A stretch of DNA of 36,980 nucleotides, from positions 372,001-408,980 of the forward strand of contig BAAIJX010000018.1 in NCBI GenBank assembly GCA_054600435.1. Direction: 5' to 3'. The notes below the pieces were generated by a model. That model saw only the letters and a program-made list of their open reading frames with translations. It did no database searches and was not told the DNA's origin. Shown piece by piece: positions 20,112 through 24,001 of this stretch (position 1 is the stretch's first letter; every line of letters starts with the position of its first letter). The DNA is from Neophaeotheca triangularis. Taxonomy: Eukaryota. The position numbers and the translations under genes are program-made.

Positions 20112-21272
20112 TCAGTCTCGCCAATTGATCAGTACCTCATCCGTTCTGAAGCGTTGCGTGAAAGTGCTGTCCTCAAGGGTGGTCCGGAAACCCATCCTCC
20201 ACGCCAAAAGCCCAGCATGAGCGATCATAATGCCATTGTCGATGCAAAAGCGCTCGTCAGTGGCAAAGACACTACCGCCACGCTCGCTCGCCATCAAACC
20301 CATCATTTGCTGCAAACGCTCATTACATCCAACGCCACCCACGATGAGCACTTGATTCGCTCCAACATGAGCCATGGCTCGTTCGGTGATTTCCACTAAC
20401 ATTGCAAAGACTGTTTCTTGCAGGGTGAAGCATAGATCCTCGCGGGTAACAAGCACTCCAGTCTCGGCATCTTTCCAGGCTTCTCCGCCTTCTAGCTTCG
20501 AAGCATCCAGCTTCTTCGCCATCTCCTCCACCCTGGCCAGAATCCCGGAAAAGCTGACGTCCATACCTTTGACGGCATACGGCAAGTCGAGTAACTTCTC
20601 GCCCTTCTTTGCAAGCTGCTCGATATTATAACCAGGAGCCGGATCGTTTGAGATATTGAGTGCGCGGGCAAAGCGGTCGAGGCAATTGCCCACTGCGATG
20701 TCGAGAGCTTCGCCAAATATTCGGTATCTCTGTGCACTGTATGCTATGACTTGGGTGTTGCCACCGCTTACATACAGTACGACAGGGTTCTCAGCGCCAG
20801 TGATTGCTCGGCCCATTTCAATGTGGCCAACGCAGTGATTCACACCGACAAGCGGCTTGTCCCACAGCGAGCTGAGTGTCCGAGCTGCGACGGCTACAGA
20901 ACCTAGGGGCGCTCCCATACCCGGACCCTTGGTATAGCAAATGCAATCGATCTCGTCCAAGGAGACTTTGGCTTGCTTCATTGCCTGCTTGACAAGGCGG
21001 ACGACCCATCTTCGGTGATGGGCTGCTGTGTCTTTCGGGAGGAATCCAGTGCCTGGTGGAGAGACAAAGGTGTGTCTCAGATTGGAGAGAATTTGTACAG
21101 GCGGTGAGGCAAGCTTTGACTGAGCATGACTGCGTTCATCATCTGAATGAGCGCTGTCGTGGGGAGACGGTGGCGTGGCGGCGCGCTCGCTGGAAGGCGC
21201 TGTAGATGGGTGGAGGATGACACCAACACCTAGCTTGTTGGCAGAGCCTTCGAGACCTATCGCTATCGGCAT
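20112..21272 (-). CDS. KAE1: tRNA N6-adenosine threonylcarbamoyltransferase Kae1 (KEOPS), 386 aa
   Basis: [70 protein letters not shown]. Confidence 0.97.
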
Positions 21273-21704
21273 TTCAAAGGAAAAGAGAGCAGTTTGCAGA
21301 CAAAGAACGGATAGAGCTCGTAGGTGCTTAACAATTGCACAGTCAAGCGAAGAGATGAAGTCAATCTTATCGATACCTAATCTTATTTATCCATCACAGG
21401 TCGGCGTTTGCTACCGCCGGCACTAGTACCATCGCGGGACCGGCCCCCATGTACTTATACGCCAAGCCAAGGTCGGCGTCGGTACGGGCTGCTGCTGCTG
21501 CGTGCCTGCCTCTTCTAGAAGGAAGTGCGACGTTGACCTGACTCTCTGGCTTTCAAGTTGTCTACCTACCTACACCACCAAATCTTTACCACCTCATCTC
21601 GCATATCTGCACATTACCTTCGTCAAATCAAATCACCCTACCCTTTCCAGCTTCTTCTCTCACCTGAGCAATACACGCCAACAGCCCAGGCCGCGACCGC
21701 CATC

Positions 21705-23585
21705 ATGTCGTGGTCCGGCTTCAAGAAGAATGTCGGCCGCGCGACTACGCAGGTCATGATGAAGACAGGTCATGTTGAACGTACTAATGACCGTACCTAC
21801 GAAGTCGAAGAGCGCCGCTACCGCACCCTCGAATCCGCCGCCAACCGCCTACAGAAAGAAGCAAAGGGATATCTGGATAGTCTCCGTGCCATGACGGCCT
21901 CCCAGATGCGTATTGCAGAGACCATTGACGCCTTCTATGGCGAAGCAGGCGCAAACGATGGTGTCAGCAGGAGTTACAAGCAGGCGGTCGAGGACCTTGA
22001 CGCAGAGACGATCAAGGCCCTTGATGGACCCTACAGGTCAGTGAGCCCAAACAATTTCGACACCCCTCTGCTACGCAGTCCAGACGGAGAGTTGGCGACT
22101 ATTGAGGATGAGGCGGAGATTGAGTACGATCTCAACTACGCACCTCGCGCTAGGATGAGGCGGCGCATGCAAAAGGCGGAAATCTACAAGAGGGAAGAAG
22201 GGAACAATGAGCTCATCGACGACGTTTACAGGCAAACCATCCTGGAGCCCATCAACCGCTTCTGCGCTTACTTTCCCGACATCAACGAGTGTAAGTGCAT
22301 GCTTCAATTCCGGTAGTATGGAAAACCACTGACATCTGTTTCCCAGGCATTAAGAAGCGCAATCACAAGATGCTCGACTATGACTCCATGCGTTCGAAAG
22401 TCAAGAGGCTCACAGAAAAGCCTGACAAGGATCCTGGCAAATTGCCGCGGACTGAGAAGGAAACCGAAATGGTAACCGCCAACCAATTTCTTCTTGAACC
22501 CCTTGATGAAGAGGAGGAAGTCGATCTTCGCATGCTCAGCCCCCCAAAACGCAACACCCGCGTGTCATTTGCTCCTGAACCCCTTCCATCGTTTTCTGCT
22601 TCCAAGGCCAAGCCGGCTGCGCTCGACTTGACGTCTGAGGGTACCAAAATTGTCGATAGGGACCTTAGACGCATGAGCGGCAGCCCGCGCATCCTTCAAT
22701 CCTGGGCCAGCTTTCGCTCCCATACTATGAGGCGCTCTTACTCGGCAGCTGCAACTCAACGTAGCGGCTCGCCAATATCCACAACACGCCTGTCCACCTC
22801 ATTTGCCAACGGCGACATCCTCGACTACCAGCCAGGGCCGCTTCGCAGAGTGCCTTCTACGGAAGCGTTCTTGAAGCGGTTGTCAGAGATGCCCACACCT
22901 CCAGAGCTGGCTGAGTTCAGCATGAAAGCGGGTGCGACGCGCAGATGGAGCCTCGTCCCCAGTCTTCCCTCGCACGGCAAGAAGCGCATTTCCATGGCCA
23001 GCTTCACGCCAAGTTTTTTTAGCACCAGGCCCTCCCCTGACACCCATCTGCCTAACAACAAGACTCGCAACGCATCTGGCTTGTCCAAGCGCACTCTTCT
23101 TCGCACTCCCTTTATGAATCCATCTGAGCTTGAGGATTTGATGGCGCCGTTGAGAGAGGACTATATGAAGAATCAGACTGACATGCTCGCGCAGGCCAAA
23201 GAAGCATATGAGCAGCTCAACAAGCAGCTCACTGACGAAATACCACAACTTATCGATCTCCGGTAAGTACATTACATTCTTGAAGGGGCCAGCCTACCTT
23301 GCTAACACACCGCAGTGTACCCTACCTAGACCCGTCATTCGAGGCACTCGTCAAGATCCAACTGCGTTTCTGCGCTGAAGCATACAGCCGGATGGCTCAA
23401 GTCCAACAGTACGTATAGGCCTCGCATCAATTTCATACCACTACGTCCGAGGATCAACGCTAACTTCTGGTTGTAGATACCTTGAAGCCTCGACACGCGA
23501 TCAGTACGCCAACGGTGATCTGGACGCAAGAGTGGAGGACGTTCTCGGACAGATTCGTGAGCTTAGCATTGCTGGAACGGTTTGA
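21705..23585 (+). CDS. RVS161: BAR-domain amphiphysin Rvs161/Hob3; exons 21705-22036, 22232-22290, 22347-22471, 23195-23262, 23316-23408, 23477-23585 (786 nt, 261 aa)
   Basis: MSWSGFKKNVGRATTQVMMKTG, IKKRNHKMLDYD, QLIDLRVPYLDPSFEALVKIQLRFC, IRELSIAGTV. All five introns are GT-AG, and the spliced length matches the ~265-aa family size. Confidence 0.95.
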
Positions 23586-24001
23586 AACTACCCCACCCCG
23601 CGCATACGTGCAGACAGTCGCGAAGAACATGATGTGGGACTGGCACCGGGAAGGCAAGGCGTTGTGGCTGCAAAATGCACATCACGATACATATCACGCA
23701 AGTGCCGCTTGACTGCGGAGGCGGAATGGGCTGCCCCTGAAGAGTCAAGGTTGACGAGAGTTGTAATTATGGTATGAACAACTTCACCACCTGAAAAATC
23801 CGGCCCACACAGCTTCGAGTTTGCTTCGACCGCTTTTACGACCTGCAGATCGAGCGAAAGCCAGCTCATGTCTGCTCGACAGCGGCAAAGTTTGGCGCGG
23901 ACGTGCAAAAGCGTTCAACACTAGACATTGCTAAGACCGTAGCCGCAAAGCCACTTCCTCCCTCGGGCAAAGCTTGCGACCTCAAGTACGTCGCGACCCT
24001 C

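Follow-up and report, generated by a model that had tools for sequence, protein, structure and literature searches.

Two conserved, in-frame and stop-free introns in the rvs161/hob3-like N-BAR gene of Neophaeotheca triangularis, a probable exitron pair

The window, by which we mean the whole 36,980-nucleotide stretch of Neophaeotheca triangularis DNA that was analysed, contains a membrane-bending, rvs161/hob3-like N-BAR gene at positions 21705..23585. The gene and all of its features lie on the forward (+) strand, and it runs from ATG to TGA in six exons whose joins were taken from RNA contigs. Exon 1 (21705..22036) encodes H0, helix 1 and the beginning of helix 2, and its last letters read ...LDGPY-AG. 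It is followed by the first of two coding introns, intron 1 (22037..22231; donor GTCAGT, acceptor TTTACAG), which is 195 nt or 65 codons long, in frame and stop-free, and which breaks helix 2 after DGPYR. Exon 2 (22232..22290) and exon 3 (22347..22471) flank the ordinary intron 2 (22291..22346; 56 nt, GTAAGT...CTGAC...CAG, GC 0.45), which contains stops. Exon 3 encodes the end of helix 2, the tip loop KPDKDPGKLPR and the first residues of helix 3, and ends at ...EKETEM. The second coding intron, intron 3, occupies 22472..23194 (723 nt, 241 codons) and has a weak donor, GTAACC. Exon 4 (23195..23262) takes up helix 3 again with AKEAYEQLNKQLTDEIPQLIDL- and is separated from exon 5 (23316..23408) by the ordinary intron 4 (23263..23315; 53 nt, GTAAGT...CTAAC...CAG). 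The likewise ordinary intron 5 (23409..23476; 68 nt, GTACGT...CTAAC...TAG) precedes exon 6 (23477..23585), which includes the TGA stop.

Translation of the fully spliced gene gives 261 aa, and this product is a canonical N-BAR protein of the Rvs161/Hob3 type. The equivalent 261-aa spliced ORF of a relative matches the Pfam BAR domain (PF03114) in one stretch, residues 6-229, with an E value of 1.7e-59, and also matches solved amphiphysin/BIN1 BAR chains (4ATM, 2.4e-23; 1URU, 1.1e-22; 2FIC, 8.7e-21). No second Pfam domain scored above the cutoff, consistent with a BAR-only protein of about 260 aa that has no SH3 domain. In the 567-aa form obtained by reading through both coding introns, the PF03114 match is broken into three stretches (E 5.2e-49).

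An earlier note on this DNA described intron 3 as 723 nt of in-frame, stop-free sequence between ...PRTEKETEM and AKEAYEQLN..., and the translation bears this out, flanks included. The segment begins with GTAACC, ends with ...ACTGAC (23177-23182) followed by ATGCTCGCGCAG, and encodes 241 residues in the exon frame with 0 stops, while the other five frames contain 10, 15, 3, 6 and 9. The chance of about 1e-5 given for such an open frame is arithmetically right for uniform base composition, but the composition-aware figure is about 8e-4: 78 of 100,000 dinucleotide-preserving shuffles were open in the exon frame, a count that leaves aside the further factor of 1 in 3 for a length that is a multiple of 3. 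Calculated from the frequency of stops off frame, the chance is 2.5e-6. Intron 1, which the note had mentioned as a possible addition to the longest isoform, is also open (0 stops in the exon frame), as were 1250 of 20,000 shuffles of it. The long forms of 502 and 567 aa that had been proposed are consistent with the 261-aa spliced product. A Pfam search with the intron 3 insert gave no match, and an ESM Atlas look-up returned ascomycete clusters with scores of 0.85-0.88 and low recognition, an uninformative result.

The weakness that had been noticed in the donor of intron 3 holds in comparison with the rest of the gene. The coding introns begin with GTAACC (intron 3) and GTCAGT (intron 1), compared to GTAAGT, GTAAGT and GTACGT in the ordinary introns. 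Their composition resembles that of exons, with GC3 values of 0.62 in intron 3, 0.66 in intron 1 and 0.63 in the exons, and GC by codon position of 0.57/0.37/0.66 in intron 1 and 0.59/0.38/0.63 in the exons; the GC content of the ordinary introns is 0.45-0.49. The splice signals of both coding introns can be read as codons. In intron 3 the donor GTN reads Val, the branch site CTGAC/CTAAC reads Thr/Ala-Asp/Asn and the acceptor CAG reads Gln, and in intron 1 AG/GTGCGT reads Arg-Cys-Val and TACAG/G reads Tyr-Arg. The branch-site match in the window, ACTGAC (23177..23182), reads Thr-Asp and lies 13 nt upstream of the acceptor AG. A branch site of the form [AG]CT[AG]AC, read T/A-D/N, occurs at the same place in all 14 distinct versions of intron 3 that we collected from the window and its relatives. 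Its CTRAC core lies 13-17 nt upstream of the acceptor, and GT, branch site and AG are conserved in 14/14. The conserved peptide motifs described below overlap the conserved donor, branch and acceptor.

Splicing of this species' gene was examined in four RNA runs from four studies (X1, X2, X3 and X5), which yielded contigs that are 95-100% identical to the window and lack all five introns. The intron 3 joint, 22471 to 23195 at GT..AG, is present in one X1 contig (depth 4) and one X2 contig (depth 8.4), and an X3 contig breaks off at 22472, beyond which it carries 16 letters of exon 4. For intron 1 the joint appears in X1, X2 and X3, with a loose X5 end that goes on into exon 2. L018 and L023, two contigs from a second species, lack the five introns of the genomic locus L010, including a 672-nt intron 3 and a 174-nt intron 1; their identity to L010 is 100% across most exon blocks, 98.6% for exon 4 and 98-99% for the last block and 3' flank. 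Segment 22472-23194 is a real spliceosomal intron, given its GT..AG removal in contigs of two studies and the agreeing loose end in a third. Wherever RNA was seen, the spliced form was dominant. No contig covered the inside of intron 1 or 22473-23193 in the four RNA runs; since assembly into contigs drops minor variants, this does not show that retention fails to occur.

Public gene models present the locus differently. A profile search retrieved 164 proteins at E<=1e-25, and all of the 120 that were listed carry the insert. Among the matches listed are 28 NCBI-sourced long models of 469-617 aa from Dothideomycetidae, in the genera Cladosporium, Hortaea, Friedmanniomyces, Meristemomyces, Oleoguttula, Rachicladosporium, Pseudocercospora, Zymoseptoria, Vermiconidia, Saxophila and Neophaeotheca; intron 1 is also read as exon in 24 of the 28. 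The model of this gene is one of them: GenBank's 567-aa P0008 is 100% identical to the read-through of the window and treats both stretches as exon. The insertion is accordingly not hidden, as had been claimed, since this model and 27 further NCBI-sourced ones read it as exon. Searches with single insert sequences returned three ORF fragments, and the wide distribution emerged with profiles alone. The canonical 261-aa form appeared in no model found by these searches, which were aimed at the insert and in which short models could not rank. Among the 120 listed proteins, none from sources without intron calling lacked intron 2 while retaining intron 3. Long uninterrupted ORFs of 459-518 aa (P0013, P0014, P0041, P0047, P0049, P0056, P0063 and P0115) and the 426-aa P0110 were considered as partly spliced transcripts and rejected, being genomic read-throughs in which intron 2 is open as well.

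Because database matches are ORFs and are biased to open frames, the unbiased sample consists of versions found in DNA. Loci were retrieved via MLDYD[SA]MR and EKETEMV (exon 3) and not via the insert; 562 stretches matched and 27 loci were confirmed. For intron 3, 17 sequences including the window reduce to 14 distinct versions of 567-969 nt, and for intron 1, 20 sequences reduce to 15 distinct versions of 165-246 nt. Every one of these (14/14 and 15/15) is divisible by 3 and has 0 stops, so that the loss of frame in close relatives for which the earlier note had allowed was not observed. Intron 2 of the same loci contains stops, with one exception that is open but out of frame. Locus L015, with two stops in intron 3, was set aside as a contig fold-back, its last 43 nt being the reverse complement of the preceding 43.

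The pattern of substitutions in these versions is that of coding sequence. In four close pairs, the dN/dS of intron 3 is 0.23, 0.28-0.29, 0.31-0.32 and 0.39-0.40, compared to 0.83-1.68 when the alignments of close pairs are read off frame, and differences accumulate at third codon positions (for example, 16/22/46 and 32/32/75). Synonymous divergence in intron 3 (pS 0.28-0.40) is of a similar size to the p-distance that the ordinary intron 2 shows between pairs from these lineages (0.32-0.45). For intron 1, in-frame dN/dS is 0.22-0.45. Intron 3 values are higher in a fifth close pair, L009/L016 (0.59), and in L021/L004 (0.83, saturated), and constraint outside the motifs is therefore weak; between lineages, the central part of intron 3 has an identity of only 23-33%. 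These comparisons show that both stretches are under purifying selection on the encoded peptide in Neophaeothecales, Cladosporiales and Mycosphaerellales. Intron 1 is a second conserved case, one that the earlier note missed beyond a side remark.

Conservation within the insert is concentrated in a few motifs. The S-P-P-K codons (22538..22549) belong to the motif D-L-x-[VI]-P-S-P-P-K-A-L, in which S23 and P25 are invariant and P22, P24 and K26 are present in at least 90% of rows of the alignment of 14 inserts (A3); S-P-P-K is invariant in 25 annotated long forms. Further along, the codons of R88-S-Y-S91 (22733..22744) form a nearly invariant R-x-x-S site, R88 being present in at least 90% of the 14 aligned inserts and S91 likewise. 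The conserved C-terminal helix of the insert, PSELEDLMAPLREDYMKNQTDMLAQ, is encoded at 23120..23194 by the same DNA that provides the branch site and acceptor. P217, E219, L220, M224, P226 and Q241 are invariant in this region of the 14-insert alignment, and its minority counts in the 14 versions (76/60/130) show third positions to be roughly twice as variable as either of the other two. The helix and the basic motifs RRMS, RRSYS, RRVPS, RRWS and KKRIS that had been listed are all found in the window's insert. As kinase-type sites the five basic motifs fared unequally: the R-x-x-S core of RRSYS is nearly invariant, and the other four lie outside the invariant or nearly invariant columns. The closest relative keeps RRWS and KKRIS as they are, has RRSFS in place of RRSYS, lacks the serine of RRMS and has lost RRVPS. 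An RVSF sequence, which we take to be a possible PP1-docking motif, is present solely in the window and the closest relative (P0002) and was dropped. Two AlphaFold models, with mean pLDDT of 48 and 52, were used for secondary structure alone. In keeping with the structure proposed earlier, most of the insert is predicted to lack structure, with a helix at residues 454-498 running into BAR helix 3 (block-mean pLDDT 74-81 in a low-confidence model).

Several explanations could account for a conserved open frame in a spliced segment. Chance, in a long GC-rich intron of one species, has a negligible probability: open frames do arise at about 8e-4 for this composition, but this explanation is already refuted by the 14/14 versions that are open across a range of 567-969 nt, all divisible by 3, with coding-type substitutions. 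It is unlikely, in our assessment, that the two stretches are constitutive introns that are always removed, with no long protein that matters and a frame kept open for another reason, such as selection against truncated, possibly dominant-negative BAR fragments, selection against nonsense-mediated decay on the occasions when a long intron is left unspliced, or composition. The RNA seen, in four runs and in two contigs of the second species, is spliced only, the middle of the insert diverges fast, and in the window alone the open frame of intron 1 is not unusual, given the 1250 of 20,000 shuffles that are open too. However, stop avoidance cannot explain dN/dS values of 0.23-0.40 in frame against 0.83-1.68 off frame, and it leaves the third-position excess unexplained. 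The invariant P-S-P-P-K and P-S-E-L-E sit 20-220 codons from any splice signal, and composition is excluded by the 78 in 100,000 shuffles and the stop-rich other frames.

The opposite explanation, that the inserts are a constitutive part of the protein, would make the 567-aa product the normal one and the spliced contigs rare by-products or artefacts of reverse transcription or assembly. The coding constraint is real, intron 3 is exon in the 28 NCBI-sourced models and intron 1 in 24 of them, and reverse-transcription artefacts that mimic exitrons are on record (PMC8240250). The two junctions of intron 1 have a 6-nt direct repeat, TACAGG, in common, which could in principle favour such artefacts. 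At intron 3, by comparison, the two sides of the junction share just 2 letters. The junctions are exactly GT..AG, with CTRAC 13-17 nt upstream and all signals conserved in 14/14 versions, and the assemblies of independent studies give the spliced form in contigs from which the ordinary introns are likewise missing. Splicing also restores an uninterrupted BAR match, in one Pfam stretch instead of three. We regard a constitutive insertion as quite improbable.

We consider it likely that introns 3 and 1 are a deeply conserved exitron pair of the PTC7-like kind, and that this one gene probably makes the normal protein plus longer versions. Both stretches lie within an annotated coding exon, have canonical signals and an RNA junction, are divisible by 3 and stop-free, and have exon-like composition and splice signals weaker than those of ordinary introns. 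As in PTC7, in-frame, stop-free introns are conserved, here in 14/14 and 15/15 distinct versions. The spliceosome takes out both stretches to leave an mRNA for the canonical 261-aa N-BAR protein. According to this proposal, transcripts with intron 3 retained would in addition be translated into a 502-aa isoform, those with intron 1 retained into one of 326 aa, and those with both into one of 567 aa. Selection on the peptide can act only if retaining transcripts are translated, from which we infer that long isoforms are made. In the low-confidence predicted structures, keeping intron 3 would place about 215 unstructured Ser/Pro/Arg-rich residues just past the distal tip loop, after which the conserved 25-residue helix would take over as the start of helix 3, and keeping intron 1 would place an acidic, aromatic segment of about 58-82 residues within helix 2. 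We speculate that S-P-P-K and R-x-x-S would make the arm a kinase target and that the isoform ratio is regulated. A more far-reaching version of the proposal, which we put forward tentatively and hold to be doubtful, is an ancient, subclass-wide splicing switch on the endocytic scission scaffold. Through such a switch, Rvs161 would alternate between the canonical BAR protein and versions that bear, at the BAR tip, a disordered arm addressable by kinases and, in helix 2, an acidic insert, with splice signals locked in place by doubling as conserved codons.

If the exitron reading is true, the gene would provide a clear and old fungal exitron case besides budding-yeast PTC7, in which two stretches of one essential-pathway gene serve as both intron and protein code across at least three orders. 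The Dothideomycetidae include black yeasts, Cladosporium and major leaf pathogens. For annotation, every public model found in the clade has a BAR domain broken by inserts, compared to the canonical 261-aa protein given by RNA, and the spliced and long forms of the gene should both be recorded. In a literature search with limited coverage of subscription journals, no paper on exitrons in fungi was found, and none linking Rvs161/Hob3 to intron retention in filamentous fungi or in these genera.

The 261-aa spliced product resembles canonical Rvs161/Hob3/amphiphysin N-BAR proteins in its end-to-end Pfam BAR match. Pairing with Rvs167 as a heterodimer and acting in endocytic scission, further marks of the Rvs161/Hob3 type, are putative for this product. 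In those proteins helices 2 and 3 are contiguous, whereas the genomic frame of this clade adds segments between DGPYR and TTVLEP and between EKExEM and AKxAY. The BAR domain of metazoan BIN1/amphiphysin 2 has alternatively spliced cassette exons, a few dozen residues long, a likeness in that alternative splicing alters an amphiphysin-family BAR scaffold; we know of no homology between these exons and the rvs161 inserts. Exitrons, as defined by Marquez et al. 2015 (PMC4484396), are introns inside annotated protein-coding exons of Arabidopsis and human, with canonical splice sites and mixed intron and exon features, that affect domains, disordered regions and modification sites; splicing of those with a size divisible by 3 yields internally deleted proteins. 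The rvs161 stretches share the coding-exon location, canonical sites and divisible-by-3 length. They differ in that the short protein left after splicing is canonical and looks ancestral, the form that keeps the stretches being the lineage-specific one, in that the pair is conserved across three fungal orders, and in that retention and translation, shown for Arabidopsis exitrons, are putative for rvs161. A close fungal parallel is the PTC7 intron of Saccharomyces cerevisiae, where one functional protein is made from the spliced mRNA and another from the unspliced one (Juneau et al. 2009, as summarized in PMC7491326), an arrangement conserved among related species according to the same source. 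Both cases involve a fungal intron that is translatable when retained (presumptively so in rvs161) and conserved among relatives. As described there, the single transmembrane helix encoded by the short PTC7 intron alters where the protein is located, whereas the rvs161 stretches have no predicted membrane helix and both protein isoforms are putative. In further contrast to PTC7, the folded BAR domain of rvs161 is interrupted by two such stretches, of about 58-82 and 189-323 codons.

The rvs161/hob3-like gene runs from an ATG at 21705 to a TGA at 23585 on the plus strand of the window and encodes 261 aa once spliced. Its third intron (22472-23194, plus strand; 723 nt, 5' GTAACC, 3' ACTGAC-ATGCTCGCG-CAG) consists of 241 stop-less codons in the exon frame, flanked by ...PRTEKETEM and AKEAYEQLN..., and the five remaining frames hold 10, 15, 3, 6, and 9 stops. 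Its frame was open in only 78 of 100,000 dinucleotide-preserving shuffles, and a chance open frame is refuted. Intron 1 (22037-22231, plus strand; 195 nt) likewise has no stop in the exon frame, which is unremarkable if judged by itself (equaled in 1250 of 20,000 shuffles). GC3 is 0.62 in intron 3, 0.66 in intron 1, and 0.63 in the exons; overall GC in the gene's ordinary introns is 0.45-0.49. Antisense to intron 3, two stop-to-stop ORFs (minus strand, 22825-23293; 111 and 136 aa) lie within it or extend past its end and probably arise from composition.

Both introns are removed from transcripts. In four public metatranscriptome runs, each from a different study, compared with window positions 21700-23600, all five introns are skipped in contigs 95-100% identical to the window. 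One contig in run X1 and one in X2 join 22471 to 23195 (723 nt skipped, GT..AG), and a contig in X3 breaks off at 22472 and then carries 16 letters equal to the start of exon 4. These junctions bear out the earlier note, which had called intron 3 an intron of 723 nt, open and in frame; the peptide features it listed were all found as well. Intron 1 is skipped in contigs from X1, X2, and X3, and a contig from X5 runs on with exon 2. No contig in the four runs covers the interior of intron 1 or intron 3; as minor variants are lost in contigs, this does not argue against retention. In a second species, transcript contigs L018 and L023 are identical to the genomic locus L010 over most exon blocks (100%), with 98-99% identity for exon 4 and the 3' flank, and lack all five of its introns, of which intron 1 measures 174 nt and intron 3 672 nt. 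The L010 insert, as we term the intron 3 peptide, is similar to that of Cladosporium models. Codon 10 in this Cladosporium-like lineage is followed by an additional 57-nt intron (L010:1824-1880), spliced out in L018 and L023 and absent from the window's gene. L023 is one codon short at the end of exon 3 (L023:640-670; EKEQ-M versus EKEQEM in L018 and L010), and its 3' UTR differs from theirs by about 2%; the missing codon may reflect strain variation at a GAACAAGAA repeat and not an alternative splice site.

As a single-sequence query, the insert recovered only three ORF fragments that run from exon 3 through the insert into exon 4 without a change of frame, the closest with 76% identity over the insert and four in-frame indels. 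A sample independent of the insert being open came from searching metagenome contigs via exon 3 (patterns MLDYD[SA]MR and EKETEMV), which matched 562 stretches, with 27 loci confirmed. Intron 3 is complete in 16 of the 27, giving, with the window, 17 sequences that reduce to 14 distinct versions; each of the 14 is stop-free and a multiple of 3 in length (567-969 nt). Another five loci (L018, L023-L026) are contiguous 261-aa ORFs with zero introns. Contig ends truncate the other six: L014, L017, L019, and L020 are open up to the break, and L027 stops within exon 3. The sixth, L015, was rejected as an exception with two stops, being an assembly fold-back in which the final 43 nt of L015:1227-1312 are the reverse complement of the 43 nt before and create two false stops. 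Complete intron 1 was found in 20 sequences (15 distinct versions), all free of stops, divisible by 3 (165-246 nt), and sharing motifs such as IEWE[ML]N and ELMD[YFI]IYR. Ordinary intron 2 contains stops in the same loci, except in L008, where it is open yet out of frame. Several lineages, Cladosporium-like ones among them, have an intron 2 of about 57-70 nt that stays in frame and stop-free as well (P0013, P0014, P0041, P0047, P0049, P0056, P0063, P0110, and P0115), and therefore ab initio ORF callers yield read-throughs of 426-518 aa; this is probably chance, given so short an intron.

Selection on the peptides was evident in close pairs, for which in-frame dN/dS of intron 3 was 0.23, 0.28-0.29, 0.31-0.32, and 0.39-0.40, with a fifth pair at 0.59-0.60; off-frame values in the same alignments were 0.83-1.68. 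For intron 1, the corresponding ranges were 0.22-0.45 in frame and 0.41-2.55 off frame. Differences in intron 3 pile up at third codon positions (e.g., 16/22/46 and 32/32/75), and its pS of 0.28-0.40 resembles the p-distances of 0.32-0.45 seen for ordinary intron 2 in pairs from the same lineages. In the flanking BAR exons, dN/dS is near 0. Constraint on intron 3 is uneven: the central part of its peptide shows just 23-33% identity across lineages, and distant, saturated pairs reach dN/dS of 0.5-0.8. Judged from these alignments, both stretches have been kept as open, selected coding sequence in three orders, in agreement with the meaningful reading frame proposed for intron 3.

As read from the aligned versions, the splice signals of both stretches are embedded in conserved codons. 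Every one of the 14 distinct versions of intron 3 begins with GTN, always Val (donors GTCAGC in seven, GTGAGC in three, and GTGGGT, GTAATG, GTAACC, and GTCAGT in one each), carries [AG]CT[AG]AC 13-17 nt upstream of its end as Thr/Ala-Asp/Asn, and closes with CAG (Gln). Intron 1 begins AG|GT[GC]NGT (Arg-Cys/Ser-Val) and ends [TC]A[CT]AG|G or TGCAG|G (Tyr/Cys-Arg). That the segments are constitutive exon with artefactual junctions is quite improbable: a 6-nt repeat at the intron 1 junctions would suit such an origin, but the conserved GT/branch/AG signals contradict it, the spliced form recurs in independent studies, and the spliced contigs also lack the ordinary introns. Slightly less improbable, though still unlikely, is that these are constitutive introns whose frame stays open merely to avoid harmful truncated products. 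This would leave unexplained the dN/dS values and the motifs kept far from splice sites; the insert retains D-L-x-[VI]-P-S-P-P-K-A-L, a nearly invariant R-x-x-S, and P-F-F-x-P-S-E-L-E-[DE]-[IL]-M-x-P. In the last 27 codons of intron 3, third positions are about twice as variable as first or second (minority counts 76/60/130), so conservation there does not come from splicing signals alone.

Pfam matches BAR in one stretch in the spliced form versus three in the 567-aa form, and hits to solved amphiphysin and BIN1 BAR chains have E-values of 2e-23 to 9e-21. AlphaFold models of the short and long forms were of low confidence (mean pLDDT 52 and 48, respectively) and were used for secondary structure only. 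The short-form model places helix 2 at about 89-153, followed by a tip loop (KPDKDPxKLPR) and helix 3 from near residue 167; intron 1 would thus fall after R111, within helix 2, and intron 3 after M172, about six residues inside helix 3. In the long-form model, 238-453 is predicted coil (block-mean pLDDT 32-39) and 454-498 a single helix (74-81 over most) linking the insert's last 25 residues with helix 3, in agreement with the earlier note's PSELE helix running into that helix. The end of the intron 1 peptide is likewise predicted to continue into the rest of helix 2. A neighboring ORF on the minus strand (20112-21386), Kae1/OSGEP-like by sequence reading, has GVILH and ILSNLRH separated by a Ser/Pro-rich, in-frame stretch of ~39 residues (about 21087-21209); no GT..AG was seen at the borders of this stretch, and it looks like a plain coding insertion.

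Profile searches returned 164 proteins at E<=1e-25, a set of ORFs biased towards open frames, with the insert in 120 of the 120 listed. The matches listed include 28 models from NCBI, 469-617 aa long and titled 'hypothetical protein', 'BAR domain-containing protein', or 'BAR adaptor protein Hob3'; their genera are Cladosporium, Rachicladosporium, Hortaea, Friedmanniomyces, Meristemomyces, Oleoguttula, Vermiconidia, Saxophila, Pseudocercospora, Zymoseptoria, and Neophaeotheca. The species looked up fall in Neophaeothecales, Cladosporiales, and Mycosphaerellales, all Dothideomycetidae. Intron 1 is read as exon in 24 of these models and spliced out with intron 3 kept in four: three from Hortaea (two complete, one partial) and one from Zymoseptoria tritici. 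The canonical 261-aa product is absent from the models found by these searches, which targeted the insert and so gave short models no chance to rank. The GenBank model P0008, a Neophaeotheca triangularis protein of 567 aa, reads both stretches as exon and equals the window's read-through of introns 1 and 3 at 100% identity; therefore the supposedly 'hidden' isoform is the annotated one. Extra residues at ordinary intron positions in P0007 (Cladosporium fusiforme; FVKTNKKKKNELLPK at the exon 4/5 junction) and P0101 (Vermiconidia calcicola; 20 residues after exon 5) look like gene-model errors.

We infer that some transcripts keep these stretches and are translated, because selection on the peptide could not act otherwise. 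The earlier interpretation stands in part, for the real intron, the frame under selection, and the PSELE helix, and fails on 'hidden'; the regulated retention and phosphorylation that it proposed are speculative. We found no paper on such introns in Rvs161/Hob3 or on fungal exitrons in literature whose coverage excludes most subscription journals. What is notable is their age, their pairing within one BAR domain, and the mismatch between public models and RNA. The rvs161 stretches probably belong to a known class, exitron or translated retained intron; the nearest concepts for introns 1 and 3 are exitrons, or exonic introns (PMC4484396), and the translated retained intron of PTC7 in Saccharomyces cerevisiae (PMC7491326).
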